Assembly (NCBI GenBank): GCA_024679955.1
Contig: JAILCQ010000009.1
Span: 76,814 to 140,813, forward strand
Length of the DNA stretch: 64,000 bases
Reading direction: 5' to 3'
Origin: Bacillota bacterium
GTDB lineage: Bacteria > Bacillota > Dehalobacteriia > UBA4068
Each line of letters starts with the position of its first letter. Position 1 is the stretch's first letter. Position numbers and translations under genes: made by a program. The notes beneath the pieces are model-generated. The model was not told the DNA's origin. It ran no database searches and was given only the letters and a program-made list of their open reading frames with translations. This document shows, in pieces, positions 6,524 through 50,414 of the stretch.

Positions 6524-6539
6524 AAAAGGAGGCGCGACC

Positions 6540-7541
6540 ATGGCATTATTTGAAAGTTACGAAAGAAGAATCGATAAAATCAACAAGGTTTTGGCTGAAT
6601 ACGGCCTCGGTTCCTTGGAAGAGGCGGCGGAGCTTTGCCATAAGGCCGGTATAGATCCCTATACCACGGTAAAAGATATCCAGCCCATTGCTTTCGAGAA
6701 CGCTTGCTGGGCCTATACGCTGGGCAGCGCCATCGCCCTGAAAAAAGACTGCCGGGACGCCGCCGCGGCCGCCGAAGCCATCGGCATCGGCCTGCAGGCC
6801 TTTTGCATTCCCGGTTCGGTGGCGGAAAACCGCCAGGTAGGCGTGGGCCATGGCAATTTGGCGGCCATGCTGCTCAGGGATGAGACCCAATGCTTCGCCT
6901 TTTTGGCCGGCCATGAATCTTTCGCCGCTGCGGAAGGGGCCATCGGCATCGCCAAAAGCGCCAATACCGTGCGCAAACAGCCGCTGCGCATCATTTTGAA
7001 CGGTTTGGGCAAGGACGCGGCGATGATCATCGCCCGCATCAACGGCTTTACCTATTGTCAGACCAAGTTCGATTATTATACCAGCGAATTGACGGTCGTC
7101 CGGGAAATTGCCTATTCCAATGGCGAACGGGCGAAGGTGCGCTGCTTCGGCGCGGACGATGTGCGGGAAGGCGTGGCCATCATGCATCACGAGGGCGTGG
7201 ACGTGTCCATCACCGGCAATTCCACCAACCCCACCCGCTTCCAGCATCCGGTGGCGGGCACCTATAAAAAAGAATGCATAGAGCAGGGAAAACGCTATTT
7301 CTCCGTGGCCTCCGGCGGCGGCACCGGCCGCACCCTGCATCCGGATAATATGGCGGCGGGGCCGGCCTCTTACGGCATGACCGATACCATGGGCCGTATG
7401 CATTCCGACGCCCAGTTTGCCGGTTCCTCCTCCGTGCCGGCCCATGTGGAAATGATGGGCTTCATCGGCATGGGCAATAACCCGATGGTTGGGGCTACGG
7501 TGGCCTGCGCGGTGGCCGCCGCCAAAGCGCTGAACCGGTAA
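6540..7541 (+). CDS. GGGtGRT family protein
   Basis: 333 aa. The family-defining SGGGTGRTLHP motif is present, with an RBS aaaaggagg 8 nt upstream of the ATG. Confidence 0.85.
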   Translation: MALFESYERRIDKINKVLAEYGLGSLEEAAELCHKAGIDPYTTVKDIQPIAFENACWAYTLGSAIALKKDCRDAAAAAEAIGIGLQAFCIPGSVAENRQVGVGHGNLAAMLLRDETQCFAFLAGHESFAAAEGAIGIAKSANTVRKQPLRIILNGLGKDAAMIIARINGFTYCQTKFDYYTSELTVVREIAYSNGERAKVRCFGADDVREGVAIMHHEGVDVSITGNSTNPTRFQHPVAGTYKKECIEQGKRYFSVASGGGTGRTLHPDNMAAGPASYGMTDTMGRMHSDAQFAGSSSVPAHVEMMGFIGMGNNPMVGATVACAVAAAKALNR

Positions 7542-9816: not shown

Positions 9817-9818
9817 GC

Positions 9819-10862
9819 TTATCCCTCCTTCCGATTGACGCTGTTTTCGGCTATGGCGGTGATTTGCGCCGCCAGCGGCAGTATGGGCAAACCGTTGGCC
9901 TGCTCCAATGTGGGCAAAAAGTGACGGGGCCAGGCATTGGCGCCGTATAATGCGCCGGCGATGGCGCCGGTCATGGTACCGATGGTATCCGTATCATAGC
10001 CGATATTGGCCGCGCCCACGATAGCGCCCAGAGGATCTCCGGGATTGGCTGCCACCAAGCCCACGGCGCAGGGGATGGCCTCCGCCACATGGAGCCCGGC
10101 GCCGATGCACTGGCCCAGCAGCACCATTTTTTCTTCCGGGCTGCCCGGCCCCAGGCCGATTTCAATGGCTTTTTCCAGGCGTTTGACCACGGAAGGGGAG
10201 GCCACGTCCAGGGCGATCTCCCGGCCCCGGCGTTCTCCTTCTATCGCGCCGTAGCGGGCCGCCTGCAGTACCGAATACAGATCCGCTTCCGGGGTAAGGG
10301 CCTGGCTGACTGCGCAGGAAATGGCGCAGGCCCCGGAGAGCGCAGGGAAATTATCATGGGTGAGCATGGTGACGGTGATGCTGTCGGCGATGGTTTGTTC
10401 CAGGTCTCCGGGATGGAACATGCCGATCGGCGAGATGCGCATGGCCGAGCCGTTGGTCGCTTGCCGGGATTGCAGTTTGACGCCGCCGGAATCGGGCACC
10501 GTCTCCCCCTGGAATCGTTTGATCGCCACCCGGGTGGTGGGGCCGGCAAAACGGTCGAAGAAAACCGCATGCTTCGACCATTCCACCAAAGCTTGCTGTA
10601 CATTGGGCACATTGACCCGGCCGCCGTCGCCGGCAATGCTTTTGGCCAAAAACCAGGCGGAACTGAAATCGTCGGTGGCCTGTCCGGGAACGTTGCCCGC
10701 GCCGAAGGTATCATTGGGCGGGGTCTCAAAATCCGTTACCGTATGGCCGAAGTATTCCAGGATTTGCTCTGTGGTACGGGCTTCCGTAGCCGCGCCCATA
10801 CCGTCGCCGGCCGCCGCGCCGATCAAAGCGCCGAGGATCCGGTCGAATAGGGAATAGGACAT
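9819..10862 (-). CDS. ADP-ribosylglycohydrolase (ARH/DraG) family protein, tandem paralog
   Basis: 347 aa with GAAAGDGMG, paralogous to the preceding ARH gene. Confidence 0.85.
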   Translation of the reverse strand: MSYSLFDRILGALIGAAAGDGMGAATEARTTEQILEYFGHTVTDFETPPNDTFGAGNVPGQATDDFSSAWFLAKSIAGDGGRVNVPNVQQALVEWSKHAVFFDRFAGPTTRVAIKRFQGETVPDSGGVKLQSRQATNGSAMRISPIGMFHPGDLEQTIADSITVTMLTHDNFPALSGACAISCAVSQALTPEADLYSVLQAARYGAIEGERRGREIALDVASPSVVKRLEKAIEIGLGPGSPEEKMVLLGQCIGAGLHVAEAIPCAVGLVAANPGDPLGAIVGAANIGYDTDTIGTMTGAIAGALYGANAWPRHFLPTLEQANGLPILPLAAQITAIAENSVNRKEG

Positions 10863-10877
10863 ATGCTTTACCTCCGT

Positions 10878-12017
10878 TTACAGCATTTCGGTGAAGGCGT
10901 TGAGCCTGGTTTTGATCTGCTCGTCGCCGCTTTGGGAATAATCGGTTTCGATCGCCAGATAGGGCAGTCCCTTTTCTTCCGTGACCAGGCGGCGTACGTT
11001 TCTGGTCTCTATGGCGTAGGTCAAACAGGTTTGCAGCACCACTTCCACCACGCCGTCGATACGGAACTCGTCGATCATGCGCCGCAGCAGATCCATGCGG
11101 TAGGTGTTCGGCGACATGCAGGAGCAGCCGATATGCAAATAGCGGCGGGCCAGGGCGTCGTAAATGTCACCGGCGTCCTCATCCACCATCTCATAAAGGG
11201 ATTTGGCGCCGCTGCAGCTTTCAAAGGCCACGGCATAGGCGTTTTCTTCCAGCGCGGACAGCACTTTTTGATATACGCCGCCCAGGGGGCTGCCGGTCAC
11301 CAGGATACGCGGTCTTTTTTCTTTCAAGCCGCCTTGCTGCCGCAGCCGTTGGGTCAGCTCGACGATCTCCTGCCGGGCCGCTTCCCGGTCGAAACGGAAA
11401 GAACTGCCGTTCAGCACTTTATAACAATCCATACCCGTCATAGGCGGCGGGTCCATTTTCATCAATTCATAAAAATCTACCAGCGCCCGGCGTTCCCGAT
11501 TGCGTTGGGCCACGGCGGCCCGCAGTTTTTCCTCGGTGATTTCCACGCCGAATTTTTGTTCCAGGCAAGCTTTGAGCCGAAGGATTTCTTTTTTCCATAA
11601 TCGTAGCGCATCTTCGGATTGATTATTGGTCAATTCCATGACCCATACGTCTTTAAAATCCGCCAGATGCTCATACATTTTTTTCTTGCCGTCGCAAGTG
11701 GTTTCCGCAATGACCAGATCGGAGAAATAGAAATAGGGGCATTTATCCGTCTTGGCAAAACCGTAACTGGCTTTGATCAAGGGGCAGAGATTCCGGGGCA
11801 GGTCCTGCTCGGCGGCGGGTATGGTCTCGTCGCTGACCGAGCAAAGACTGACCACCGCCGCGCCGGCGGCCAGGGGCAATTCGATCGGCATATAGGTGCA
11901 AAAGATACCTACCAACGGTGTGCCGCTTTGTTTAAATTCTTTGGCTGTGATAAAGCTTTGCCTTCTTTGTTGGCTGAAGGTATCGAATATTTTCGGTAAA
12001 TCTGCGACCGTGCTCAT
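10878..12017 (-). CDS. 2-hydroxyacyl-CoA dehydratase / benzoyl-CoA reductase-family single-subunit Fe-S protein (HgdB/DCCP-like)
   Basis: 379 aa, Cys-rich (about 11 Cys), HgdB/BcrB-like fold. It is a solo subunit sharing an operon with a BcrAD/HgdC-type activase. Confidence 0.65.
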   Translation of the reverse strand: MSTVADLPKIFDTFSQQRRQSFITAKEFKQSGTPLVGIFCTYMPIELPLAAGAAVVSLCSVSDETIPAAEQDLPRNLCPLIKASYGFAKTDKCPYFYFSDLVIAETTCDGKKKMYEHLADFKDVWVMELTNNQSEDALRLWKKEILRLKACLEQKFGVEITEEKLRAAVAQRNRERRALVDFYELMKMDPPPMTGMDCYKVLNGSSFRFDREAARQEIVELTQRLRQQGGLKEKRPRILVTGSPLGGVYQKVLSALEENAYAVAFESCSGAKSLYEMVDEDAGDIYDALARRYLHIGCSCMSPNTYRMDLLRRMIDEFRIDGVVEVVLQTCLTYAIETRNVRRLVTEEKGLPYLAIETDYSQSGDEQIKTRLNAFTEML

Positions 12018-18885: not shown

Positions 18886-18959
18886 ATAAAGTAAAATATT
18901 TGTAACAAACTGCCTGTAATACGGAGAAGCTTTGTCAGATGGATGAAGGAGGCCTGAAA

Positions 18960-19628
18960 ATGGCGAGAAACGTGCAGATGTTGACCGATTTTACGATGCA
19001 TATAGATGAAGCCGCTTTTCTGACGGAGATGAAGGTCAAGCCCGGCAGCCGGCGGGAGCAAATGTGTTTGCATTTGATCGAAAAAATCAATGCTTTGCTC
19101 AAACCCAAGGCCGGTTTTTGCGAAGCCGTGGTGGAAGAATTGGACGAAAGCGGCATGACGGTGGACGGCGTTCGCTTCACCGGCACCCTGTTTGCCGACC
19201 GACTGAAGGTGGGGCAAAAGCTCTATCCGTTCTTATGCAGCTGCGGCAAGGAAGCCGGCGATCTGGAATATACCGTTTGGGGCGACGTATTGCAGCAATA
19301 TTGGGCGGATGTATTGATGGAAAAATCCCTGCGTTGTATCGGCCAGGCTTTGGAAGAACGCGTGTCCGCCTATATACAGGGGGAATTTATCGCGCGCTTC
19401 AACCCCGGTTCCTTACCGGCCTGGCCCCTGATGGAACAGCGGCCTTTGTTCCAGCTGTTGGGGGAGATCGTTCCGGCTGTGGGCGTGGAACTGACGGATC
19501 ATTTCATCATGCTGCCCCAAAAGTCGGTGTCCGGCTTCTATTTCAGCTCGGAGCAGGAGTATCACAACTGCTCTTTGTGCCCCCGTTTGCATTGCCCCAC
19601 CCGGCAGACGGAATTTATCGGCGGATAA
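18960..19628 (+). CDS. vitamin-B12-dependent methionine synthase activation-domain (Met_synt_B12) protein
   Basis: C-terminal region NPGSLPAWPLMEQRPLFQLL..VELTDHFIMLPQKSVSGFYFSSEQEY matches MetH reactivation-domain motifs (GYPACPD..LTESFAMWPGASVSGWYFSHP). AAGGAGG RBS. Confidence 0.7.
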   Translation: MARNVQMLTDFTMHIDEAAFLTEMKVKPGSRREQMCLHLIEKINALLKPKAGFCEAVVEELDESGMTVDGVRFTGTLFADRLKVGQKLYPFLCSCGKEAGDLEYTVWGDVLQQYWADVLMEKSLRCIGQALEERVSAYIQGEFIARFNPGSLPAWPLMEQRPLFQLLGEIVPAVGVELTDHFIMLPQKSVSGFYFSSEQEYHNCSLCPRLHCPTRQTEFIGG

Positions 19629-29678: not shown

Positions 29679-30126
29679 AGGTCTATTCCCTCCGTTTCCC
29701 TATTATACGCATATATCGAAAAAATAGTCAATTGCCGCGCCCGGTCTTATTGCGGAACAAAGGCCGGAAAAGAGGATTTTTTTCGCTTTTGCCGCTATAA
29801 AAAATCAAAGAAAAATGAAAGGCCTTTGATTTTTTCTCTGGCAATATCAGAAGGTATATAGTATAATAAGAATTAAAATATGGGATAGTATTTTGTTTTG
29901 CCGAAACGCGGGGAAATACGAAAAACGTAAACGGCAGGAAAGCCCCCTGCGTGACGGCAAAATATAGCGATAGATCGATGGAAAGCGGCCCTTTAGCGGC
30001 GGCGGCGCAACCATTTGCCGCCCGCGGCGGGAACGGTTGCCGCAAAAGTAATTCTTATCCTTGCCTTAGGCAATGCAAGCAGGCAATTCAAATAAAACAG
30101 TCATTCCAAAGTAAAGGGGAAATTCT

Positions 30127-33100
30127 GGTGAATACAAATTATGATGAACAAAACGTATCGGAGACGCTAACAGACAAAGTGGATATTCCGGAATTGGCTT
30201 TGGATCATGAACAAGCGGAATTGGCCGCGGCGATCGCCCCGCAGTCCAAGTACAGCGATGAAGATATTGCCGCTTTCGAGCAAGCCAAGGAAATCGCCAT
30301 CAAAGCGGCCGAGCAATTGACCGAGGCGCGCCGGGTTTTATCCCAAAGCGAAGACGAAGCCGCCAAGGCGGATACCGCCTATCAGGCGGTAGCGGATCTG
30401 CCGGAAAAATTGCTGGCCGACGAAGAAGAGGCGAAAACCGTGGCAAAGCTGGCCGCCGCCCTGGTGGTGGATACCCAGGTGACAAAAAGCCTGGCCGACG
30501 AGGAATACGCCCGGCTGTTGACCAAAGCGGCGGAAGATCTGGAGGAAACCGCCGCCCAGGCGAAAGCCGATTTGGCGGAAAAAAAGGCGGCCCGCATCGC
30601 CGCGGAGTATGAAAAAGCCCATGTGTTTGTGGAAAAAGCCAGGACTCGCCTGATCGCGGATCGGGCGGCGGTAAAAGCGGCGGAGGCGAAACGCGGCCGC
30701 ATCTCGGCGGAAAACGACATGACGGTCAAGGTGGCCGAAGCGGATATGAACTTTTCCACCCATTTGCAGGAGCAAGCCGCCCAGGCCGCCCAGGAAGCCG
30801 ATCGGAAACTGAAAGAAGCGGAACAGGATCAAACCCGGGCAATAGAAGAATCCAAGCGCCTGCAGGATGAAGAACTGAACCTGCGCAGAAACAGCGAGTT
30901 GGAGCTGGAAAAGCTGGCCTTGTCCCATCAAGCGCCGTTGAAAGCGTGCGCGGAAAAAACTTACCAGGCCAAAATCGACGAAGAAAACGCCAAGCAAGAG
31001 GCGGACGACACCGAGAGAGTCGCGGCGGAGAAAAACGATATCTGGCATACGGCGCAGCAAAAAGCCAAGCAAGCCGCGGAGGATGAGGAAAGCACCAGGC
31101 AAAATACCGCGGCTGATCTGGAACGGGTGACCAACGAAGCTTTTGAAGCCCGCAATATCGCCAGCGCCAAGGCATCCGGCCTGGCCGCGGCGGCGGAATC
31201 GGCCAAACAAGCCGCCCTGGAAGCCACCCAGCGGGCGGAAGAAGCGCAAATGGCGATCCCGCCGGTGCAGGACGAAGTCAAAATGCGGGAAGAAGCTTTG
31301 GCGGCGGCACGGCATACCTCAAATGAAGCGGCGCGTATGGCGGCCAACGCCACGGCGGCCCGGGTCGCGGTAAAAGAAACTTCCTCCGCTTTGTTGGCCC
31401 AGGCGGAAAAAATCCTCCAGGATACGGCGACGAACGCGGAAAAACTGGTGGAAAAGAGAGATTTGGAATATCAAACCGCGGTGAACACCCTGGAACAGCT
31501 GCAGGCGCAAGCGGAAAGCGCCCTGCATGCCGCCAAGGACGCCGCGCAAATCGCCCAGGATACGGAAAGCGCCAAGAACAAGGCGGAAGATGATTTCCAT
31601 CAGATCTGCCTGGAAAACGACGACAGGATCAAATCCACCCGGGAAACCATGGAGCGGATGTGCAACGACGCCCAGGCGGCCCGCATTACCGCCGCCGAAG
31701 AAGTGGTGATCGCAGAAAAAATCGCCCGGGAAGCGGACGCCCAGGCGGAGCAGAAAAAGCAGCTGTATTTGCAGGCGGTAGACGCCAGGGAAAAAGCCGA
31801 GGAACACGAGCAAGCGATCACGGCGCAAACCCAGGAAGAAATGCGCGCGGCCCAGGAAAACTGGGACAGGGAAATTGCGGATATGCAATCTTCCTGCCGG
31901 GCGGCGGAAGAAGCGCAAGCGGCCCGCATCGCCCAGCGGGAATCTTTGGAATTGGCTGCGCAGGAAGCGGCCAAGACTTTGCAAAAAGCGGAAACCGGCA
32001 AGTTAGCGGCTTCTAAAAGATTGGCGGCTGCTGTGGCGAGAGCGGCGATCCGGCTGAAAGCCGCCGAAGAGGAATTGGCGCAGATCGCCCTCAAGGAAAA
32101 ACCGGCGCAACTGGCGTTTGAAGAAGCTTTGCAGGCGGAAGTATTGATGAAGGCCCAGTATAATGAAGTCGCTATCGCGGAAGCCCCTGCGGCGGAAGAA
32201 ACCCCTGCTGTAGAAGAAGCGCCTGCGGCGGAAGAAGCGCCTGCGGCGGAAGAAGCCCCGGCGGCAGAAGAAGCCCCGGCGGCAGAAGAAGAGCCTGCGG
32301 CGGAAGAAGAGCCTGCGGCGGAAGAAGCCCCGGCGGCAGAAGAAGCCCCGGCGGAAGAAGAAGCCCCGGCGGCGGAAGAAGCCCCTGCGGCGGAAGAAGC
32401 CCCTGCGGCGGAAGAAGCCCCGGCGGTAGAAGAAGAGCCGGCGGCAGAAGAAGCTTCCGCGGAGTCGTTCTTCCGGCAAGCGGTGGCTTTGGCGGTGGAA
32501 AAGGCCGCTGCCAAAGCGGATCTGGACGCCAAAAATGAACTTGCGCCAGAGGATAAACCCGCCTTTGCGCCGCCTTTTGTCATGGCTGCCGATACGGTGA
32601 CCCCGGCAAAGGCCTCCCATGATATCATACAAAACGCTTTGGATCAACTCACCATCGAGTTGGATCGGGCGGAGGTGGAAGCGGCTTTAGCGGCGGTACC
32701 GGGGGTGAAACCCACGGCGGACAACAATGCCGCGTCCGCGCAGCATACGGCGGCGGACGATCCTGCGCCGCAAGGAAAAACGACCGCTCATGCCGATCCG
32801 CAATTGGCCGGTCTTTCTTCGGTACTGGAGGCGGCCCACGACGAATTGGCGAAACTGGACGAGTTGATGACGCAAAGCCAGGCCATGCATCAGCCTGCCG
32901 CAGAAGGAGAAGCTTCTCCCATTGCGGAGACGGCTGCGGAAAAAACGACGGCGGCGAAACCGGAAATGCAAGGCCCGGTATGGGATAAAGACGAAAAGCC
33001 GGCGCATCGCAAACCCTGGGACCGTTTGTTCGGCAAAGGAAAACGGCATAACGGCCATGGCAACGGCGAGGAAAACGGAGCGGCGGACAAAGCGGCAGAG

Positions 33101-33448
33101 ACGGCTGCGGAGAAAACGCCGGTAGCGGAAAAGGCAACGGAAGCGCCGGCCGCCAAAGAAAAGGCGGAAGCGGAAAGCCGGCCGGCAGCAGCCCCGGCGG
33201 CGCAGCCTCAGCCTGCCGCCGAGAAAGCGGAAGCCGTTATCGACGAGGCGGACGAATTGCTGCGCTTGGCCAAAAACGAGGCGGAGGTTTTGGCCCAGGC
33301 GGCCAAGGATGGCGGCGATCATGCTTTGGACAAGCTGAATGACGCCAACTTGCAGCAGGCCATCGAAACCCGGGCCGCCGAAAAGAAAGAAGCGGAAGAA
33401 GAAGCGGAATTGCGCAAAGCCATTTTTTCAATGATCGATAAAAAATAA
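30127..33448 (+). CDS. large acidic Ala/Glu/Lys-rich coiled-coil protein with a tandem (EEAPAA)n repeat
   Basis: About 1107 aa from a GTG preceded by aaagggg. There is no signal peptide or TM segment, heptad-like A/E/K/Q composition throughout, about 15 hexapeptide repeats, and a basic G/H-rich segment (KGKRHNGHGNGEENG). Confidence 0.7.
32180..32455 (+). repeat. 18-bp coding tandem repeat (gaagaagcccctgcggcg)n, about 15 units
   Basis: Direct, near-perfect 18-bp units encoding EEAPAA, with occasional T/V/E substitutions. Confidence 0.9.
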
Positions 33449-33545
33449 TGCCTTTTCAGGCAACACGGCGACAAGGCTGTTTCAAAACCTGCAGCGGCTG
33501 GCTGCCGAACGTTTTGAAGCAGCCTTTCTATTTAGGAACGGAGGT

Positions 33546-33821
33546 ATGGGGATGAGGGCTGTTATTTCTGTAGTCGGTAAGGATCGCACCGGCATATTGG
33601 CAAAAGTGAGCGGCAAATGCTTTGAACTGAACGCCAATATCGTCGATGTGACGCAAACCATTTTGGAAGATTTATTCGTCATGGTCATGTTGGCGGAAAT
33701 CGACCGCATCAATTGCGATTATCAGCGTTTCGTAGCCTTGTTTACGGAATTGGCGGAAGAAAACGGTTTGAAGATCCATGTGATGAACGAAGATATCTTT
33801 AACGCCATGCATCGTATTTAG
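33546..33821 (+). CDS. ACT-domain protein (UPF0237)
   Basis: About 90 aa ([17 protein letters not shown]), the conserved partner of UPF0210. Confidence 0.8.
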
Positions 33822-33829
33822 GAGGAGCT

Positions 33830-35197
33830 ATGCTGAATATTCGCGATATATTAGAAACCATTCATATGATCGACGAGGAGCATCTGGATATCCGTACCGT
33901 CACCATGGGTATTTCTTTATTGGACTGTACGGATAGCGATGTGAAGAAAGCTTGCGAAAAAATATATGACAAAATCTGCCGCAAAGCGGAAAACCTGGTG
34001 AAAGAAGCGGAGCTTTTGGCGGAAAAGTACGGGGTGCCGATCATCAACAAAAGGATTTCCGTTACCCCCATTGCCTTAATGACCGCCGCCGCCGCGGACA
34101 GCAACGACGATACCTTGCTGCAATACGCTTTGACCATGGACAAAGCGGCCCAAAGCTGCGGCGTGGATTTTATCGGCGGCTACGGGGCTTTGGTGCATAA
34201 AGGCTTGAGCGCCAAGGCAAAGGCTTTTTTGCGCTCCATACCCCGGGCCCTGGCGGAAACGGAGAAAGTATGCTCTTCCGTCAATGTGGGCTCCAGCAAA
34301 AGCGGCATCAATATGGATGCGGTGGCGATCATGGGGGAGGTCATCCATGAAACCGCCCGGCTTACCGCCGGCGCCAATTGCATCGGCGCCGCCAAATTGG
34401 TGGCCTTTTGCAATGCCGTGGAGAACAATCCCTTTATGGCCGGCGCTTTTCACGGCGTGGGCGAAGGGGACGCCTGCATCAACGTAGGCGTATCCGGGCC
34501 CGGAACGGTGCAGGCCGCTTTATCCCGGCATCCCCAGGCCGATTTCAGTCAATTGGCGGATATCATCAAACGCACTGCCTGCAAGATCACCCGGGTGGGG
34601 CAGTTGATCGGCGAGGAAATCTCCCAGCGCCTGGATATCCCCTTCGGCATTGTGGATCTGTCCTTGGCGCCTACCCCGGCCCGGGGCGATTCGGTGGCCC
34701 GCATCCTGGAGGAGATGGGCTTGCCTTTCTGCGGCGCTTGCGGCACCACCGCGGCCTTGGCCCTGCTGAACGACGCGGTGAAAAAAGGCGGGGTTATGGC
34801 TTCCTCCCGGGTGGGCGGGCTTTCCGGCGCTTTTATACCGGTGACCGAGGACGCCGGCATGATCGAAGCGGCGGAAAAAGGCGCTCTGTCCATCGAAAAG
34901 CTGGAAGCCATGACGGCGGTTTGCTCCGTGGGCCTGGATATGATCGTGATCCCCGGGGATACCCGTCCGGAAGTGATCGCCGCCATTATCGCCGACGAGG
35001 CGGCCATCGGCATGATCAACAACAAAACCACCGCCGTGCGTTTGATCCCGGCTATCGGCAAACAAGTGGGGGATCGTTTGGAATTCGGCGGCTTGCTGGG
35101 CGGCGGCCCGGTGATGCGGGTCAGCGATTTGTCGCCGGTGGATTTCGTGCGCCGCGGCGGCGTGATCCCCGCGCCCATCCACAGCCTGCGCAATTAA
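33830..35197 (+). CDS. PFL-like UPF0210 (DUF711) family protein
   Basis: 455 aa matching the UPF0210 family over its full length. The 2-nt spacing after the ACT gene indicates coupling. Confidence 0.8.
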
Positions 35198-42963: not shown

Positions 42964-43626
42964 CTAAAGAATATGCATGATCACTTCGCGAAACTCCCGC
43001 ACATGGGTTTCCATGGCTGTGCGGGCTTTTTCCTGGTCATGCTCCATGATGGCGGTCAGGATATCTTTCAGGTTATCCATCGAAGCCGCCACATTGCCGA
43101 TATTGCTCATGTTGTAATACCAGCCCCGGGTGCAGCGGTCGTCCACTTCTTCGCAGATTTCGTTTAAAGATTGATTCAAAACACAGCTGCGGATGATCAG
43201 ATGAAACTGCTGATCCAAAAGCGCCAGTTGTTCGCTGCTTTTTGCCGGGTTATGCTCTTTGATCTCCTGAATGATCGCCTGCAAGGCGTCGATTTTTTCT
43301 TCGGTGATGGTTTCAACGGCCAAGGCAGCGCTGAGACCTTCCAACACCTCGCGGATTTGATATAGGTTTTTCAATTCCAGCAGATTGATATCCTCCGCAA
43401 AGGTGCCGAAACGGGGCAATATTTTCAATAGCTTTTTATTCTGCAACTTCAGCAACAGTTCGCGCAAAGGCGTACGTCCGATGCCGAATTCGTCGCATAA
43501 TTCTTTTTCATTGATGATTTGCCCCGGTTGATAATGTAAATATACCAGACGGTGACGCAGTATATCATACACTTCTTCCTTGTCTTTTTTTTGGACAGCG
43601 GTGGCGGATTGGCTTGCCTGTTCCAT
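42964..43626 (-). CDS. GntR-family (FadR/FCD subfamily) transcriptional regulator
   Basis: N-terminal wHTH (GQIINEKELCDEFGIGRTPLRELL) and an FCD C-terminal domain. It is divergent from the BCCT-mtmB cluster. Confidence 0.85.
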   Translation of the reverse strand: MEQASQSATAVQKKDKEEVYDILRHRLVYLHYQPGQIINEKELCDEFGIGRTPLRELLLKLQNKKLLKILPRFGTFAEDINLLELKNLYQIREVLEGLSAALAVETITEEKIDALQAIIQEIKEHNPAKSSEQLALLDQQFHLIIRSCVLNQSLNEICEEVDDRCTRGWYYNMSNIGNVAASMDNLKDILTAIMEHDQEKARTAMETHVREFREVIMHIL

Positions 43627-43707
43627 ACTTATACGCTCCTAATAATATGTAAAAGATGTTTATTATAATGGAAGCTATTATTCATTATACAGTGATTCCT
43701 GCCAAAA

Positions 43708-43721
43708 GGCAATATATTGCC
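43708..43721. promoter_or_regulatory. perfect 14-bp palindrome GGCAATATATTGCC (candidate GntR operator)
   Basis: Self-complementary sequence in the divergent intergenic region between the GntR and BCCT genes. Confidence 0.4.
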
Positions 43722-44308
43722 AAGAATTGTATAAAGAAAATATATAACGAAGTAAACTTTTTCTATCTCCGCAAGTTTTTTGTCACTAAGATAATAAATT
43801 TTATTTATCGCATTGGCAGGAAAAAGCTTTTTCCTATCGTATATAAATTATATATCAATAAAATATTAATAATATATTATATGGATTTTCGATTCAGGCA
43901 ATGCTGTAACGATAGATTCATGTTCATGGTTGAAACAGGCGGCAAGCTCGGATTGGCGCATAGAAAGGAAAACAACAAGGGAGGCATAGACAAACAATCG
44001 TGATATGCCGTTTGCAGGCGACCGCCGGGACGCAATGGGCGCGCCGGCGGTTGCCGTCATAGGGAACGGTATTTTGATCGGAGCTTGCGGCTTGTCGCAA
44101 TAACGCAGCGCAGACAGAATAACGAGAACAGGTCTTTCTATGTACGCCGCAGATTTTCTACTGGCGGCCGGTCGGACGGATGGCGGGGATCCGGGACTTC
44201 AAGCGGCAGAGTGCATATACGCAGCTGTACGCCCTGCTTTGATGCATGGAGTTTTCCCGCCGGGCATGAGAACCCGTTGCGATTTGAAAATAAGGAGTTG
44301 AGTTTACC

Positions 44309-45907
44309 ATGAACAGCCTACAAACATCCGGTCAGCCTGAACCGGCAGGTAAGACCATACATGACTTGAACAAAGGCGTTTTTTGGCCGGCCTTGATCGT
44401 TATCGGTTTGATTGTCTCCTTGCTGTTGCTATTTCCCAGTCAAGGCAATTTGACGATCAATGCCACGTTGCACTGGATAGAATACCGTTTGGATTGGTTT
44501 TTTGAGATTGGCAATTTCGGTTTTTTGCTCTTTGGACTGTATATGGCTTTTGGTAAATATGGCAAAGTAAAAATGGGAGATCCTCTATCGAAGCCGGAAT
44601 TTTCCACTTTAAGCTGGGCGGCGATGTTGTTTTGTACCGGAATCGGTTCCAGTTTGATCTATTGGGGCGTTTGCGAACCTTTGTCTTATTGGGGTTGGCC
44701 CCCCTTTGGACTGGAGGCCTATTCTTTGGAAGCCGCGGACTGGGGCGTGCCCTATGTGATGTTCCATTGGGGGATCATGGGATGGGTGCCTGCCGTTATC
44801 CCCGGCTTGGCGGTGGGTTTTGCCTATCACAATCGCAGCAACGGATCCTTGGCCATTTCCCAGGCCTGCGTGCCTTTGATCGGGCAGGCCAGGGCGAATG
44901 GCCTGTTGGGCAAGATCATTGATATTCTGGTGATTTTCGGTATCATGGGTGCTGCGGCCACTTCTTTAGGCATCGGCGTTCCGCAGTTGACGGAAGCGAT
45001 ATCCCAGTTGTTCCATGTTCCCGTTACCTCGTTTATGCAGATCATGGTGCTGCTCATATGGGTATGCATATTTGGTTTCAGCGTGTACAGCGGCTTGTAT
45101 AAAGGCATCAAGAAGCTCTCGGATATCAACGTTTATTTAGCCTTCTTTTTATTGGCCGCCGTTATCGTTTTGGGGCCAACCGCGTTTATTCTCTCCAATA
45201 TGACCAATGGCTTTGGCCTGATGCTGCAGAATTTTGTGCGGATGTGTTTCTACACCGACGCCATCGGCGGCAGCGGTTTTCCTCAGGAGTGGACGGTATT
45301 CTTTTATGCCTGGTGGATTTGCTACGGCCCGCTGATCGGCATTTTCCTGGCGCGGGTTTCCAAAGGCCGTACCTTCCGGGAAGTGGTTCTGTGCTGCATC
45401 CTTTTTGCGTCGCTGGGCTGCTGGCTGGTGACCGGCATTTTCGGCAGCTATGCCGTGAACCTGCAAACAACCGGAGCCGTGGATTTGCTGGGGATTTATG
45501 CGGAGCAAGGCGGCGCGGCCGCTATGGTGGCAACCATTACCTCCTTGCCTGGGGCTGAATTCTTCTTAGTGGTGTTCATCGTGTTACAATTCATTTTTAT
45601 GGCCACCACTTTGGATTCCGCCGCTTTCGTGATGGCCTGCAATTGCACCAAAAATTTAAAAGGCGAGGAACAGCCCAATCGCAATTTGCGGGTGATTTGG
45701 GCATGTATGCTGGGCGCTTTGGGTTTAGGCGTGCTGCTGATCGGCACACTCAAAGCGGTGCAATCCACTTCCATCATTGGTTCCGTACCGATCTTTCTCG
45801 TGTGGATCGTCTTGATCTGTTCCCTGTTGCGTTGGCTAAAGAGCACCTATGGAAGCGGCCCCATCGATGTGAACAAACCGGCGCCCCGGGATGAAGACGC
45901 GGCTTGA
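44309..45907 (+). CDS. BCCT-family (betaine/carnitine/choline) transporter
   Basis: 532 aa, 12 TM segments, BCCT signature region (WTVFFYAWW..). Confidence 0.9.
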   Translation: MNSLQTSGQPEPAGKTIHDLNKGVFWPALIVIGLIVSLLLLFPSQGNLTINATLHWIEYRLDWFFEIGNFGFLLFGLYMAFGKYGKVKMGDPLSKPEFSTLSWAAMLFCTGIGSSLIYWGVCEPLSYWGWPPFGLEAYSLEAADWGVPYVMFHWGIMGWVPAVIPGLAVGFAYHNRSNGSLAISQACVPLIGQARANGLLGKIIDILVIFGIMGAAATSLGIGVPQLTEAISQLFHVPVTSFMQIMVLLIWVCIFGFSVYSGLYKGIKKLSDINVYLAFFLLAAVIVLGPTAFILSNMTNGFGLMLQNFVRMCFYTDAIGGSGFPQEWTVFFYAWWICYGPLIGIFLARVSKGRTFREVVLCCILFASLGCWLVTGIFGSYAVNLQTTGAVDLLGIYAEQGGAAAMVATITSLPGAEFFLVVFIVLQFIFMATTLDSAAFVMACNCTKNLKGEEQPNRNLRVIWACMLGALGLGVLLIGTLKAVQSTSIIGSVPIFLVWIVLICSLLRWLKSTYGSGPIDVNKPAPRDEDAA

Positions 45908-45983
45908 GCAGCCGGGTTTTTTATTCTCTGTTGAGGAAAATCTATAAAGACCTGTTTTCGTTATGCAAAATTCCAGTTTTCCC

Positions 45984-46012
45984 TTGACAATTTCTTATAA
46001 TATTATTAATAT
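45984..46012 (+). promoter_or_regulatory. sigma-A-type promoter of the corrinoid-protein/mtmB-like operon
   Basis: TTGACA, 17 nt, then TAATAT, followed by an approximately 200-nt leader. Confidence 0.45.
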
Positions 46013-46211
46013 ATTAGTAACATATAACATGAGCCGCAAATAAATTGGCGCTGCAAAGTTGATTTCAAGATACAGGAAAAAGGCAAAGCCATCCGTCGTA
46101 AAAGCCGCTCCGGCAAGATGTTGTTTGCATATGCTGCGATCAAGCTGAGGCGTAAGCTGTTGCTTGCCAAGCTTTGGCCGCATAGGAATTCACTTTAAGG
46201 AGGTTGTAAAA

Positions 46212-46847
46212 ATGTCTGATTTGTATGCGCAAATGAAACAGTCCATACTGGATTTGGATAGCGATTTGGCGGTAGAGTTGGCGGAAAAAGCCCTGGACGC
46301 GGGTATGGCTCCTTTGGAGGCCATAGAGAAAGGGTTTGCCCCCGGCATGGAGGAAATCGGCGAAATGTTTGACCGCCTGGAAATATTCTTACCGGAAGTG
46401 ATTTTGGCGGCGGACGCGATGATCGCCGCTGTGGAAAGACTGAAGCAAAACATCGAGCATGCGGAGGTGGGCTTTCAGGGACGGGTGGTCATCGGCACGA
46501 TCAAAGGCGACGTGCATGATATCGGCAAAAATATTATCAAAACCATGTTGATCGCCACCGGCTTCGAGGTATTGGATTTGGGTAAGGACGTTTCTCCCAA
46601 CACCTATGTGGAAAGAGCCGTAGAGGCGGACGCGGATATCATCGCTATGTCGGCCTTATGTACCTCCACCATGCTGCATATGCCGGATGTGGTGCGTATC
46701 CTCAACGAAGAAGGATTGCGCAGCCGCTTCAAAGTCATTGCCGGCGGGGCGCCGGTTTTGCCCGACTGGGCGTATAGTTGGGGCGCCGACGGTTATGGAG
46801 ATAGCGCCTCCGAAGCCGTGCAATTGTGCAAACGACTGACCCGTTAG
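46212..46847 (+). CDS. corrinoid (B12-binding) protein, MtmC/MtbC-like
   Basis: N-terminal B12-binding_2 cap plus a Rossmann B12 domain carrying the DVHDIGKN (DxHxxG) motif. AAGGAGG RBS. Confidence 0.9.
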   Translation: MSDLYAQMKQSILDLDSDLAVELAEKALDAGMAPLEAIEKGFAPGMEEIGEMFDRLEIFLPEVILAADAMIAAVERLKQNIEHAEVGFQGRVVIGTIKGDVHDIGKNIIKTMLIATGFEVLDLGKDVSPNTYVERAVEADADIIAMSALCTSTMLHMPDVVRILNEEGLRSRFKVIAGGAPVLPDWAYSWGADGYGDSASEAVQLCKRLTR

Positions 46848-46910
46848 CGGGAAGGGTAGAAACCTCAAACATGCTCGTGAAAGAATAAACAAAAAGGAGG
46901 CGTATCTGCC

Positions 46911-48308
46911 ATGTACGTTAGTTATCAGGAAGTATTACATCGCGCCGAGACCGGAGCCTTGATGAAAGAATCGGATTTCGACCGCAAGGTGGGCCAAACG
47001 GCCCGGGAATTGGTAAAAAAATATGATTTGCAGTATGATCCTGATGTGGCGGTCAATTATGACGACGATATCGCCGACCGGTTTTTTGAAGCGGCTTTGG
47101 ATTTCTTTGTGGAAGTGGGCGTGTATATCACCGAATACCAGCGGGTGGTGAAGTTCACCAGGGAAGAAACCTTGGATACCATTGCCGGCGTCCTTTCGCA
47201 AGTGCAATATGGCCGCAATAAGGACGCCAAAGATGTTTGGAAACGAAGAATCGAAGATTATATCGATCCCTTTATCGTGTTCAGCCCGGTGGGCAATCCG
47301 GTGGATCAGGAATTGTTCCAGGCTTTTATCCAGCACTATGCTCAGGAGCGGATCACGGACGCTTTGTTCAGTCCTGTTTTGACCAAATTCAACGGCCAAC
47401 CTGTGAAATCCGACGTGGCCTCGGAAATGGAGGCTTCCATCTGGAATTTGAAGACCCTGCGGGAAGCCGCGCGTATGGTGGGCCGTCCGGATATCGGTTT
47501 ATGCAACTGGGCTTCTACGGCGGAGCGCACCGACGTGGTCATCGCCCTGGCGGATCCCGCTTTCGGTTCGATTGTCAACGACGGCGTTTTGGTTGCGGCC
47601 ATCGCCGAAATGAAAGTGGATCAGGAGCGTCTGAAAAAAGTCAGCTACTTGCGGCAAAGAGGCTTCATACTGGAAGGCCTGCTGGGGCCGCTGATGGGCG
47701 GATATGCCGGCGGCCCGGCGGAGACCTCGATCTGCCTGATTGCCCACCATTTTCTGGCCGCTTGTGTCTATCGTACCGATATCAATGTAGGGTTCCCGAT
47801 CCATATCAATTATTGTTGCAATACCACGGCGGAAATGCTCTGGCTGACCTCTATCACCAATCAGGCTTTGGCCAGGAACTGCAACATACTTAAAATGGCC
47901 AATATGTTCAATCATGCCGGGCCGAATACCGAATGCTGTATGTTGGAATCCGCCTGTTACGGCTTAGCGGCCACCGTTTCCGGGGCCGATGCTTTGGATT
48001 TGGGCGCTTTGACCATGAACCGCCATCCCATGCGTTGGGCGGTGCAGGAACCGAAACTGGCTGCGGAAGTGGGACATATTGCGGCAAGGATGGGTATGAC
48101 CAGGCAGCAAGCCAATACCATTGTAAAAGCCTTGCTTCCCGAGTATCAGCATTTGCTGGGAACGATGCCTCTGGGGTCCACGTGGACGGAATGCTATGAT
48201 ACGGAGCGCTTGGTACCCACCGGCGATTATGCGGATTTGGTAGAGCGGATGCATAAAAAGCTGGAAAGTTTCGGCTTGGATTGGCAAGCGCTTCGGGTGG
48301 ATAGATGA
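46911..48308 (+). CDS. monomethylamine-methyltransferase (MtmB) family substrate:corrinoid methyltransferase, non-pyrrolysine homolog
   Basis: 465 aa colinear with Methanosarcina MtmB, sharing motifs such as GGYAGG, STNT.E and a C-terminal TECYD motif. The MtmB Pyl position (GRPGMGV-O-GPETS) aligns with GRPDIGL-C-NWAST, so Pyl is replaced by Cys and there is no in-frame TAG. Confidence 0.7.
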   Translation: MYVSYQEVLHRAETGALMKESDFDRKVGQTARELVKKYDLQYDPDVAVNYDDDIADRFFEAALDFFVEVGVYITEYQRVVKFTREETLDTIAGVLSQVQYGRNKDAKDVWKRRIEDYIDPFIVFSPVGNPVDQELFQAFIQHYAQERITDALFSPVLTKFNGQPVKSDVASEMEASIWNLKTLREAARMVGRPDIGLCNWASTAERTDVVIALADPAFGSIVNDGVLVAAIAEMKVDQERLKKVSYLRQRGFILEGLLGPLMGGYAGGPAETSICLIAHHFLAACVYRTDINVGFPIHINYCCNTTAEMLWLTSITNQALARNCNILKMANMFNHAGPNTECCMLESACYGLAATVSGADALDLGALTMNRHPMRWAVQEPKLAAEVGHIAARMGMTRQQANTIVKALLPEYQHLLGTMPLGSTWTECYDTERLVPTGDYADLVERMHKKLESFGLDWQALRVDR

Positions 48309-48392
48309 TTTCCTGGCATATTGCTTGCTTCCGGCGAGGCCTTGTTGCAAGCGCCTCGCCGGATATTACGCTTTGGGAAAGGGGAAGTAGCA

Positions 48393-49037
48393 ATGCCGCC
48401 GCTTATTATCGCAAGACAATGGTTGGACGATTATGCGGAAAAGGCCTTTCGGGAACTATGCGGCATAGACCGTAGACCAAAACGATTGGCTTCTCTGTGG
48501 GAAAAAGCATTGCGCCTACGGGATGAAGCTACCGGCGACTGGCAATGCCGCTTTACCTGGCGCAGCTTTCGCCAATTCTCTCTGCAAGGCGATACGCTGG
48601 AGATCGAGGGCATACGTTTTGTTTCCGGCGATCTAGCGGGGTATGGAGAACAGCAGATCGACGAGATCCTCGTTTATTTGTTTCGCGGCCCTGCCTGGCA
48701 GGCGGAGGAAGGTTTGCCCACGATAGAATTGTTGCTGAAAAACAATTGGGCCTCCGCCTATGTGATGGCGGCGTTTAAATATCTGCGCCAATATTTTAGC
48801 CGGCGCTTGTTTCCCGATCAGGCGCTTTCGCCTTCACTGGCCCCCGGTTACGGCTTTTCCTGCCGGCAGGTGGAAGCCTTTTTCCAACTGGTAAACGGCG
48901 GCGCCATCGGCATAGAGTTGACGGAGGAAGGCCTCATACGCCCCTTCAACAGTTGCGTGGGTCTATATCTGGTCTATCGCCGGCCGCGGCTGGAATTGCC
49001 TTTTGGCGAAAATCCGGCGGGAAAGGTAAGCCAATGA
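48393..49037 (+). CDS. vitamin-B12-dependent methionine synthase activation-domain (Met_synt_B12) protein
   Basis: LAPGYGFSCRQVEAFFQLVNGGAIGIELTEEGLIRPFNSCVGLYLVY matches the MetH reactivation-domain C-terminal motifs. It is the second such gene in the window. Confidence 0.7.
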   Translation: MPPLIIARQWLDDYAEKAFRELCGIDRRPKRLASLWEKALRLRDEATGDWQCRFTWRSFRQFSLQGDTLEIEGIRFVSGDLAGYGEQQIDEILVYLFRGPAWQAEEGLPTIELLLKNNWASAYVMAAFKYLRQYFSRRLFPDQALSPSLAPGYGFSCRQVEAFFQLVNGGAIGIELTEEGLIRPFNSCVGLYLVYRRPRLELPFGENPAGKVSQ

Positions 49038-49187: not shown

Positions 49188-49230
49188 AGACCGTATTCTG
49201 TCCGGGCTGATAAACGATCGATTTATCAGC
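49188..49230. terminator. 18-bp perfect inverted repeat with a 7-nt loop (bidirectional terminator)
   Basis: tctgtccgggctgataaa-cgatcga-tttatcagcccggacaga, lying between convergent genes and followed by a T-rich tract. Confidence 0.6.
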
Positions 49231-49259
49231 CCGGACAGATTGTATTCGTTTATTTGCAA

Positions 49260-50414
49260 TCAAAAAATCTTGGAGATGATATCCAGACCCGCCACAAAGG
49301 TGCCGATGACGCTGCCGATATTGGCCATAATGACGATGAGCAATATGCGCAAAAAACGGTTGCGGAAAAAACCTTTGATATGCAGGATATCCTCCGGGAT
49401 ATTGTTGATGTCTTTCACGGTGGGTTTGCGGATGGCGGCTTCGGTCAGGCCGGCAAACCAGCCGCAGGCCAAAAGCGGATTCAGGGAAGAGATGGGCGCC
49501 ACCAGAAGGGCGGTCAAAACGGTCAGCGGATGGCCCAAAGAGACCAGGGTGAACAGGGCGGCCAGGCTGCCGTTCCACAGAATCCAGGATTTGATTTGCT
49601 GCCAACCGATTTGCGGATTGATGAAAAAACCGTAGACGATCAAACCCACGATCAAAGCGGGGATCAGCCAGCCGATGATTTTCCCTGTAGGTTTTTTGGG
49701 GGGGATGGCGGTCAATTCCTGCAAATCATGGTCTTTGGCGATTTCTTTGCATACGCCAGGCACATGGGCCGCGCCCAAAATGGCCACCACCTTGGGGCCG
49801 GGGGCGTTTTTGATTTTTTCCGCCAGATGTTGATCCCGTTCGTTTACCAAGATGCTGCCGATTTGCGGGAATTCCTGCTTCAGATCGGCCAATGCCGACT
49901 CCAGCATATCTTTTTCCATGATTTCCTGCAAATACTCGTCGGATACTTCATCCTCGCCATTGTCGCCCAGTATGAGGTTAAACAGCAATTTGCATTTGTC
50001 GCGAAAACCGATTTTGCGCCAGATGCGCAAAAAAGTAACCTTTATGCTGCGGTCGGCCAAAACCAAATTGGCGCCGGTCTCTTCCGCGCTGATCATGCCC
50101 TGCACCATTTCCTGGCCTACCGTGGTATCCAGCTTTTCGGCGATACGTTTTTGATAGGAGCTCAGCGCCAGGTTGACCAATACGAAGGCGACTTTTTTTT
50201 CTTTAATGATTTTTACGACGTCGGTGTTTTCCCATTCCTGGGGATTTTTGATGCTGTGATATCTGGCTTCGTCCAATTCGATGCAGATGCTGTCCGGCTT
50301 TTCCGCATCGATGGTTTCCTTTACCAATTCGGCGCTTTCTTTGGAAACGTGAGCGGTGGCGATCAGGACGATCTCTTTGTTTTGATATGTCAGTCTGGTT
50401 ATTTGTTCGCTCAA
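49260..50414 (-). CDS. TraB/GumN family protein
   Basis: 384 aa with an N-terminal TraB domain (IATAHVS..ICIELDE) and C-terminal TM segments. Confidence 0.8.
   Translation of the reverse strand: MSEQITRLTYQNKEIVLIATAHVSKESAELVKETIDAEKPDSICIELDEARYHSIKNPQEWENTDVVKIIKEKKVAFVLVNLALSSYQKRIAEKLDTTVGQEMVQGMISAEETGANLVLADRSIKVTFLRIWRKIGFRDKCKLLFNLILGDNGEDEVSDEYLQEIMEKDMLESALADLKQEFPQIGSILVNERDQHLAEKIKNAPGPKVVAILGAAHVPGVCKEIAKDHDLQELTAIPPKKPTGKIIGWLIPALIVGLIVYGFFINPQIGWQQIKSWILWNGSLAALFTLVSLGHPLTVLTALLVAPISSLNPLLACGWFAGLTEAAIRKPTVKDINNIPEDILHIKGFFRNRFLRILLIVIMANIGSVIGTFVAGLDIISKIF

Follow-up and report, generated by a model that had tools for sequence, protein, structure and literature searches.

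A pyrrolysine-free MtmB-family methyltransferase gene linked to a corrinoid protein, a BCCT importer and a GntR regulator in a Bacillota genome

Introduction

Which methyl donor would be used by a bacterial methyltransferase that belongs to the MtmB family, that of the methanogen monomethylamine methyltransferases, but has no pyrrolysine (Pyl)? The question is raised by a locus in a 64,000-nt stretch of DNA, called the window hereafter, from a Bacillota bacterium (assembly GCA_024679955.1, contig JAILCQ010000009.1, positions 76,814 to 140,813 of the forward strand). In it, the gene of such an enzyme (the substrate:corrinoid methyltransferase, or MT1) is accompanied by genes for a GntR-family regulator, a BCCT (betaine/choline/carnitine transporter) importer, a corrinoid protein and a small protein encoded by open reading frame 5 (ORF5). 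A first-pass annotation, made from the nucleotide sequence alone, had read this island as a demethylation pathway for quaternary or otherwise methylated amines, and the combination of a Pyl-free MT1, a corrinoid protein, a BCCT importer and a GntR regulator still makes a quaternary-amine-type pathway the best reading. In the wording preferred here, with a probability of about 0.7, the locus would encode the substrate-specific entry steps of a cobamide-dependent methyl transfer with three components, from an imported 'onium' donor, in an anaerobic, gut-type (Peptococcaceae-like) Firmicutes bacterium. The genes and the spacer of the island are as follows.

42964-43626, minus strand: GntR-family regulator with an FCD ligand-binding domain, 220 aa (GntR 53.8 bits, FCD 83.2 bits)
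43627-44308, no strand: regulatory spacer, 682 nt
44309-45907, plus strand: BCCT-family importer, 532 aa (PF02028, 482.5 bits)
46212-46847, plus strand: cognate corrinoid protein, 211 aa from the ATG at 46212, in an ORF that opens with TTG at 46164 (Pfam, TIGR02370)
46911-48308, plus strand: MT1, non-pyrrolysine MtmB-family methyltransferase, 465 aa (PF05369, colinear with 1L2Q/1NTH)
48393-49037, plus strand: ORF5, small accessory protein, 214 aa from the ATG at 48393, in an ORF that opens with TTG at 48321

Results

MT1 is a full-length member of the MtmB family

When MT1 was searched against Pfam, it matched PF05369 (MtmB) with 287.8 bits, the gathering cutoff being 25 bits, from position 5 to 450 of a profile of 450 positions. 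MtmB was the sole family found and MttB (PF06253) was not matched, so that the profile search bore out the family assignment of the first-pass annotation. By phmmer, residues 9-456 of MT1 were aligned with residues 13-456 of the chain of Methanosarcina barkeri MtmB1 (PDB 1L2Q/1NTH; E=1.3e-55) at 28% identity, and all 20 family-invariant residues were kept. The ORF consists of 465 codons with a single stop at its terminus and no in-frame UAG, again as previously annotated. TAG ends 11 of the 52 long ORFs of the window and is thus an ordinary stop codon in it; no tRNA was found in the 64 kb, nor any pyl-like cluster among the annotated genes. MT1 is, in summary, a full-length Pyl-free member of the MtmB family. 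Its dN/dS ratio (nonsynonymous over synonymous substitution rates) was ~0.03 in comparisons with each of two relatives (loci L008 and L005). The protein is 100% identical to MCR4962598.1 (P0072), whose NCBI product name is 'monomethylamine:corrinoid methyltransferase', and no model claimed it in the NCBIfam search.

In the alignment with 1L2Q/1NTH, the position of the catalytic pyrrolysine (the X in GRPGMGV-X-GPETS of MtmB1) is taken by Cys198 (GRPDIGL-C-NWAST; codon TGC, 47502-47504), the residue that had been predicted there. The GP(E/D)T motif that follows the Pyl column in Pyl-type sequences, for which MtmB1, P0079 and P0085 served as reference, is replaced by NWAST in MT1.

The residue at the Pyl column varies between clades

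The Pyl column was hypervariable over 129 full-length representatives of the family, with Cys in only 8 of them. In the clade of the window protein (at least 69% identity), one member (P0006, 74% identity) has Ala; a sister clade at 60% has Phe, and a paralog from a Peptococcaceae metagenome-assembled genome (MAG) has Trp. Larger bacterial clades carry His or Tyr, Asgard clades Lys or His, Thermoplasmata and Bathyarchaeia Met, and others Val. Cys at this column is therefore a trait of one clade and no signature of the family. A catalytic role for Cys198 as a substitute for pyrrolysine was considered and rejected on this conservation pattern (Ala within the clade, F/W/H/Y/M/K/V elsewhere). A column that varies so much fits better with a pocket-lining position that sets specificity than with a catalytic replacement, and the fact that its residue differs from clade to clade suggests many undiscovered methyl-donor specificities.

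Four full-length database entries close to MtmB1 (P0075, P0079, P0082 and P0085) have K or Q at the Pyl position and keep GP(E/D)T; probably these residues are UAG codons rendered as ordinary residues by the source pipelines. In a search seeded with MtmB1, true Pyl-MtmBs were represented either by such full-length K/Q entries or by fragments of ~245 aa cut at the UAG, and the former are a trap for any count of 'non-Pyl' homologs. At Asgard loci (L055-L067; Heimdall-, Hod-, Borr- and Promethearchaeota), two divergent non-Pyl MtmB-like genes often lie a few kb apart, one with a Lys truly encoded in the DNA at the Pyl column and the other with His.

The family is large and mostly uncharacterised

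A word-indexed search recovered 65 relatives of MT1. Against 1.84 billion cluster representatives, HMMER detected 831 clusters (50% identity) at E<=1e-3, 465 at 1e-10 and 152 at 1e-30, the entire clade of the window protein falling into one 50% cluster. At least 80 loci with MtmB-like genes were found in a genome scan. Among the matches listed were Peptococcaceae, Desulfobacterota, Syntrophia, Spirochaetota, Anaerolineae, Aminicenantes and Actinomycetota, together with Asgard archaea, Bathyarchaeia/Thermoproteota and Thermoplasmata, and the 831 HMMER clusters spread over Firmicutes and Chloroflexota alongside Desulfobacterota, Spirochaetota, Asgard archaea, Bathyarchaeia and Thermoplasmata. 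The closest named genomes among these matches were uncultured Peptococcaceae MAGs (92-94% protein identity), and no Methanococcoides locus was among them. In a six-frame tally of 86 bacterial and archaeal loci, a corrinoid-protein gene stood immediately 5' of the MtmB-like gene almost everywhere, and none of the MtmB-like genes had an in-frame stop, two of them being frameshifted.

Some genomes carry more than one such gene. One Peptococcaceae MAG (CAYOVS01; L007, L009 and L014) has three corrinoid protein/MtmB-like pairs, with 92%, 71% and 45% identity to MT1 and with Cys, Cys and Trp, respectively, at the Pyl column. In an Anaerolineales MAG (L085, 3582-10541), two corrinoid-protein genes and four MtmB-like genes stand in tandem, all of the latter with Met at this column.

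The only characterised non-Pyl MtmB homolog is MtqB (ACT9XH_RS04775) of Methanococcoides methylutens Q3c, encoded 3' of the corrinoid protein MtqC (PMC13044021, Front Microbiol, March 2026); almost all the rest of the family is uncharacterised, and in the tree of 1,061 sequences of that study the remaining clades are described as 'of unknown function' (PMC13044021). The earlier statement that no characterised system matched this one has been overtaken by the work on MtqB and, already in 2022, by the report of a Peptococcaceae non-Pyl MtmB homolog (PMC9768040), and the NCBI name of MCR4962598.1 also places the protein. The enzyme family was thus already known, its first function was assigned in 2026, and MT1 is an uncharacterised member of it, not a new kind of system.

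The corrinoid protein and the importer

Pfam found the B12-binding_2 and B12-binding domains in the corrinoid protein, which also passed the model for methyltransferase cognate corrinoid proteins (TIGR02370; 220.6 bits, cutoff 215.3) and has DVHDIG as its DxHxxG motif, in keeping with its annotation as MtmC-like. Its start is likely the ATG at 46212, which stands behind an AAGGAGG ribosome-binding site. Its dN/dS lies within the range of 0.03-0.08 that covers MT1, the importer and the corrinoid protein.

Membership of the importer in the BCCT family, also proposed before, was confirmed by the PF02028 score given above and by TIGR00842 (436.7, cutoff 407.6). The best NCBIfam model was CaiT, at 436.5 and under its cutoff of 541; as no equivalog model reached its cutoff, the substrate is not assignable from NCBIfam. 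Among solved structures, the importer was closest to DddT, which imports dimethylsulfoniopropionate (DMSP; 365 bits), followed by the carnitine/gamma-butyrobetaine antiporter CaiT (297), the trimethylamine transporter and BetT (249 each) and BetP (205). In DddT, the ligand is contacted by W140, W320, W321 and Y324, by the carboxylate-binding S204 and by Y112 (PMC13270143). The first five are kept as W154, W335, W336, Y339 and S219, whereas Y112 is not conserved and has S126 in its place. The conservation of this pocket supports an onium substrate, possibly one that bears a carboxylate. The gene has a dN/dS of ~0.05.

A BCCT gene is linked to the corrinoid protein/MT1 pair in six loci of the clade (L005/L007, L008, L009, L087, L089 and L090), which differ in arrangement and share 60-94% identity; in L009, L089 (70%) and L090 (60%, with a sigma-54 activator) it lies downstream of the pair. 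This recurrent linkage supports an onium substrate as well. In L089 (2154-7558), the BCCT gene that follows the MtmB-like gene is itself followed by a pair resembling 2-oxoacid/indolepyruvate:ferredoxin oxidoreductases and by an AMP-forming ligase, possible hints at what becomes of the demethylated product.

Second methyltransferase and activase in relatives of the locus

Two arrangements beyond MT1 were found among the relatives. At 73-75% identity (L001, L002-L004 and L006), the order is (GntR)-corrinoid protein-MT1-URO-D (~450 aa)-CobW-like GTPase-RACo, with a Liv-type ABC transporter beyond RACo in L002. The 92% relative (L005=L007) has BCCT-corrinoid protein-MT1-ORF5 homolog-RACo-URO-D, and a Clostridiales MAG (L087) has BCCT-corrinoid protein-MT1-ORF5 homolog-RACo. 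The 94%-identical relative L008 shares with the window the arrangement Mrp antiporter-cobT-GntR-BCCT-corrinoid protein-MT1, at ~78% DNA identity. A second methyltransferase (MT2) is therefore present in L001-L007, and the activase RACo in L005/L007 and L087, where it follows the ORF5 homolog, as well as in L002-L004 and L006.

The URO-D proteins linked to these clusters are of the MtaA/CmuA type (147-155 bits) and share 55% identity among themselves. In NCBIfam searches, the GTPase (L001, 10910-11860) was ZigA/CobW-like, and the RACo proteins (in L005, 4846-6471) matched the AcsV and RamA models. The cluster-linked URO-D proteins (L001, 9528-11860; L005, 6513-7886) have a C-terminal extension of ~100 aa with a Cys-x-x-Cys motif (SAACAAC or SASCAAC), and the CobW/ZigA-like metallochaperone GTPase is encoded directly 3' of the URO-D gene in L001, L002 and L006; taken together, the metallochaperone and the extension suggest a metal-dependent MT2.

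No MT2 is encoded by the island itself, as had been noted at first sight. The URO-D/MtaA-like gene at 7641 had then been offered as a candidate for the missing partner, a proposal that the comparison with the relatives does not sustain. The protein (7641-8792), the sole URO-D of the window, is MtaA/CmuA-like with 126 bits, under the cutoff of 235, and shares just 21% identity with the MT2 that the relatives encode in their clusters; with this identity and unrelated genes around it, it was rejected as an ortholog of the cognate MT2, and nothing specific appears to favour it in that role. Its gene belongs to an apparent operon (7641-12017, minus strand) with two ADP-ribosylglycohydrolase genes and a gene resembling the D component of 2-hydroxyacyl-CoA dehydratase (HGD-D), next to a gene for a GGGtGRT-family protein (6438-7541, plus strand; 648 bits). 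This is an unusual setting for a methylcobamide methyltransferase homolog, and no corrinoid protein is encoded nearby.

ORF5 accompanies a RamA-type activase

ORF5 is 100% identical to MCR4962599.1 (P0066; 'hypothetical protein K6B40_01805'), and only 3 clusters of homologs were found among 5.8 billion proteins. In L005 and L087, homologs with ~50% identity are encoded directly 3' of the MtmB-like gene. The protein evolves fast, since ~50% identity was found between genomes whose MT1s share 92%; nevertheless, the proportion of nonsynonymous differences (pN 0.35) was lower than that of synonymous ones (pS 0.75), and L005 compared with L087 gave a dN/dS of ~0.23, against 0.03-0.08 for MT1, the importer and the corrinoid protein.

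The first-pass annotation had taken ORF5 for a MetH activation-domain protein that stood in for RamA. Neither part of this held in that form. No Pfam match was obtained for 48321-49037 at E<=0.01; Met_synt_B12 (PF02965) scored 13.6-13.8 bits, under its cutoff of 25. It was the sole Pfam family matched, below threshold, by three of four members of the ORF5 family (best E 0.028), so that any similarity is remote. Searches of PDB with the sequence and with a profile were both empty, and an AlphaFold2 model built from three sequences (mean predicted confidence, pLDDT, 48.9) was too poor for a fold search. A link to the domain was provided by a second protein of the window.

18939-19628, plus strand: stand-alone MetH-activation-domain protein, 229 aa (PF02965, 32.3 bits, passing the cutoff)

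This protein matches E. coli MetH and Thermotoga TM0269 in PDB, and no methionine synthase or corrinoid gene adjoins it in the window. When it was compared with ORF5 by hhalign, a probability of 87% was obtained (E=4e-6, 154 columns), and both proteins have the motif APGY...G[IV]xLT[ED]...P..S[CV][VS]G[LW]Y, which corresponds to residues 1136-1181 of E. coli MetH. ORF5 is thus plausibly a remote relative of the MetH activation domain. As for a replacement of RamA, a RACo/RamA-type activase is encoded directly 3' of the ORF5 homolog in L005/L007 and in L087, that is, wherever downstream sequence exists, which indicates that ORF5 accompanies such an activase and does not replace it.

The regulator and the intergenic region

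A GntR ortholog with 87% identity occupies the same position in L008, and GntR/FCD genes with 43% identity adjoin the corrinoid protein/MtmB-like pair in L001 and L006. The spacer between the GntR and BCCT genes contains two perfect palindromes, GGCAATATATTGCC at 43708-43721 and AGGAAAAAGCTTTTTCCT at 43818-43835; as there are six perfect palindromes of at least 14 nt in the whole 64 kb, two of the six in a spacer of 682 nt amount to a local enrichment. Neither is kept in L008, despite a regulator that is 87% identical. The presence of a perfect palindromic sequence, which had been annotated as a GntR operator, was thus confirmed, and its conservation was not. A conserved operator was rejected, as the palindromes are absent from L008 and L001 and each species has AT-rich repeats of its own.

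Other blocks of the spacer are kept between the window and L008, namely a -35-like TTGGCA at 43813, an AT-rich block at 43860-43880 and, as a whole, a GC-rich leader of ~450 nt 5' of the BCCT gene (43850-44308). Within it, the 20-mer AATAACGAGAACAGGTCTTT at 44118-44137 is kept in L008 in the midst of diverged surroundings, and this region could be an attenuator or a protein-binding site. The fold predicted for 44000-44308 was not significant against shuffled sequences (z = -1.3), and the leader had no Rfam match. A structured leader or riboswitch 5' of the BCCT gene was set aside on this z value, with only two sequences to compare.

Of the two elements elsewhere in the window that had been cited for a cobamide-dependent lifestyle, cobT was confirmed (TIGR03160; 372, cutoff 319) and is syntenic with the island in L008. 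The B12-riboswitch-like element was not: neither a cobalamin riboswitch (RF00174 and relatives) nor any other Rfam family was found in the window at the gathering score, and a scan of the window with Rfam at E<=1 yielded four matches at chance level, none of them a cobalamin riboswitch.

Features around the island

Downstream of ORF5, the operon is ended by a strong terminator-like hairpin, beyond which a convergent gene is followed by the ATP synthase operon.

49197-49239, plus strand: intrinsic-terminator-like hairpin with an 18-bp stem
49184-49160, minus strand: convergent terminator-like site for the TraB gene
49260-50414, minus strand: TraB/PrgY-family gene

Elsewhere in the window, an ORF of 1165 aa (29951-33448, plus strand) had no Pfam match and lies in DNA with an AT skew of 0.40 (30001-32000) and 0.25 (32001-34000).

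Discussion

A proposed pathway

The identities of the genes, membership of MT1 in the MtmB family, the absence of Pyl, the conserved linkage and the purifying selection are established. From sequence comparison we infer, in addition, a substrate class, a direction of methyl flow, an acceptor and roles for ORF5 and GntR. In the proposed pathway, the BCCT protein would bring in a methyl donor of the onium class, with a permanent charge. Quaternary ammonium compounds akin to choline, betaine and carnitine are the most likely donors, and a sulfonium such as DMSP is the main alternative. The TIM-barrel MT1 would bind the donor where true MtmB accommodates its pyrrolysine-methylamine adduct, with Cys198 lining the pocket and helping to set specificity. 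It would then offer a single methyl group to the Co(I) centre of the corrinoid protein encoded beside it, yielding methyl-Co(III) and the demethylated product. As the donor would be cationic already, pyrrolysine would be unnecessary. A second methyltransferase encoded elsewhere in the genome could then move the methyl group to tetrahydrofolate or a thiol; the relatives offer as a model for it a URO-D/MtaA-like protein of the Zn type with 450 aa, behind which a CobW-type metallochaperone is encoded. Cobalt accidentally oxidised to Co(II) would be re-reduced by an ATP-dependent activase of the RACo/RamA type encoded outside the window, and ORF5, an accessory factor with distant kinship to the MetH activation domain, would probably dock on the corrinoid protein during this reactivation. 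The divergent GntR/FCD regulator may control expression, presumably by sensing the substrate or the product.

Several observations weigh against this proposal. Neither the island nor the rest of the 64-kb window contains an MT2 or an ortholog of one, and a six-frame BLAST search of the window (E<=1) detected neither RACo nor a further corrinoid protein or MtmB-like gene; with MT2 and the activase missing from the window, both would have to be supplied in trans. Three relatives with 73-75% identity (L001, L002 and L006) have no linked BCCT gene, L002 having the Liv-type ABC transporter instead, and similarity to known BCCT proteins does not separate N+ from S+ substrates. Finally, the most strongly induced protein of a Peptococcaceae strain grown on dichloromethane is a non-Pyl member of the MtmB superfamily (Ga0180325_111810), with no link to amines (PMC9768040).

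Alternative explanations

A bolder version of the proposal is that the narrow Peptococcaceae/Clostridiales clade with C-NWASTAE has a specificity new to corrinoid methyltransferases, for example for DMSP or for a carboxylated betaine other than those used by the MttB-family enzymes, and that ORF5 is a new, diverged MetH-activation-like factor that works with RACo to keep the Co(I)/methyl-Co(III) cycle going. We regard this combination as less probable than not and put it forward tentatively.

It is doubtful that MT1 is a functional ortholog of MtqB, that is, a choline and/or tetramethylammonium:corrinoid methyltransferase that would yield dimethylethanolamine or trimethylamine. MtqB, for which choline and tetramethylammonium serve as methyl donors to cob(I)alamin and monomethylamine gives only a trace of activity, is the sole characterised precedent and shares with MT1 the order of corrinoid-protein gene followed by MT1 gene; its clade, with a conserved pocket of Met, Cys and aromatic residues, is reported to include bacteria (PMC13044021). 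Moreover, the BCCT family includes choline carriers, and BetT was matched with 249 bits. However, MtqB is reported to branch near the Pyl-MtmBs (PMC13044021), whereas MT1 belongs to a narrow clade with 28% identity to MtmB1. The importer resembles DddT and CaiT more closely than it does choline carriers, and it has retained the carboxylate-binding Ser, for which neither choline nor tetramethylammonium has a carboxylate to offer. The strong differences between clades at the Pyl column and in pocket residues also argue for different substrates.

That the donor is DMSP, demethylated to methylmercaptopropionate, seems unlikely. Corrinoid-dependent anaerobic demethylation of DMSP is known physiologically from sulfate reducers and acetogens, and sulfonium compounds and quaternary amines are chemically equivalent in their capacity to donate methyl to Co(I). 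The importer matched DddT best among solved BCCT structures, end to end with its 365 bits, and keeps both the aromatic box and the carboxylate-binding Ser of that protein (PMC13270143); this box is, however, generic to BCCT proteins, the tyrosine of DddT corresponding to S126 is lost, and the best NCBIfam model is CaiT. In addition, the metagenome bins (Clostridiales/Peptococcaceae) to which the relatives belong show no marine sign, and a search of the literature gave no link between the MtmB family and DMSP.

It is also unlikely that the island is a remnant whose RACo and MT2 genes after ORF5 have been lost, so that the pathway no longer works. Where L005/L007 and L087 have RACo (and URO-D) after ORF5, the window has a terminator and the convergent TraB gene, and the DNA similarity between the window and L005 ends inside ORF5. 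Nevertheless, none of the four genes is disrupted, purifying selection on them is strong, and the synteny from Mrp through cobT, GntR, BCCT and the corrinoid protein to MT1 is common to the window and L008. In the MttB-family systems of Eubacterium limosum, MT2 and the activase are shared in trans among several MT1s, which also speaks against a loss of function.

A monomethylamine:corrinoid methyltransferase that works without pyrrolysine, as implied by the NCBI product name, by the family membership and by the trace activity of MtqB, is the least credible reading, as pyrrolysine is what binds and activates methylamine in MtmB (Hao et al. 2002, cited in PMC13044021), both this residue and the GP(E/D)T motif are replaced in MT1, no BCCT importer is needed for an amine that is small and neutral or protonated, and no NCBIfam model claims the protein.

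Significance

At present, the results amount to a refined annotation and a candidate for experiments, and no new kind of system has been discovered. Non-Pyl MtmB homologs form a sizeable family (831 clusters at 50% identity) with one member of assigned substrate, and the locus is a good entry for the discovery of bacterial substrates, as its MT1 is tied to an importer and a regulator and the linkage to the importer recurs in six loci. Were the donor a quaternary amine from the diet, trimethylamine-forming routes in gut-type communities would face a competing pathway; were it DMSP, a missing gene for anaerobic DMSP demethylation would have been supplied.

Comparison with known systems

MtmB1 of M. 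barkeri (1L2Q/1NTH) and MT1 share the Pfam family, colinearity, the GGYAGG and AGP.TE motifs and a corrinoid partner with DxHxxG. They differ in that MT1 lacks UAG and Pyl, with Cys198 in that place and NWAST for GPETS, has 28% identity to MtmB1, has no pyl context in the window and is linked to a BCCT gene.

With MtqB/MtqC, the locus has in common a Pyl-free MT1 encoded directly 3' of its own corrinoid protein (46212-46847, then 46911-48308), a methyl donor proposed to be permanently charged, and an MT2 and activase encoded elsewhere. In contrast to the archaeal MtqB, which serves coenzyme M and methanogenesis and was compared by description only, the locus is bacterial and linked to a BCCT importer, a GntR regulator and ORF5, and its transporter hints at a carboxylated onium compound.

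Another bacterial, Pyl-free member of the MtmB superfamily is Ga0180325_111810 of 'Candidatus Formimonas warabiya' DCMF (Peptococcaceae; PMC9768040, 2022), which shares ~30% identity with known MtmBs; the likeness is drawn from its description only. For ORF5, the nearest relative is the MetH activation domain (PF02965; residues 897-1227 of E. coli MetH, and the stand-alone TM0269, PDB 1J6R), from which it differs in its sub-threshold score, in a link that is transitive through the protein at 18939-19628, and in being a stand-alone protein encoded beside RACo in the relatives.

The non-Pyl MttB superfamily of Desulfitobacterium hafniense and Eubacterium limosum comprises MtgB (glycine betaine), MtpB (proline betaine), MtcB (carnitine) and MtyB (gamma-butyrobetaine). 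These systems resemble the locus in using a Pyl-free homolog of methylamine methyltransferases for the demethylation of quaternary amines through a corrinoid protein, an MT2 and a RamA-type activase, often with BCCT-type transporters nearby, as in the window; they belong to PF06253, whereas MT1 is an MtmB of PF05369. The three corrinoid protein/MtmB-like pairs of the Peptococcaceae MAG CAYOVS01 are, in turn, comparable to the multi-paralog MttB repertoires of acetogens that use quaternary amines.

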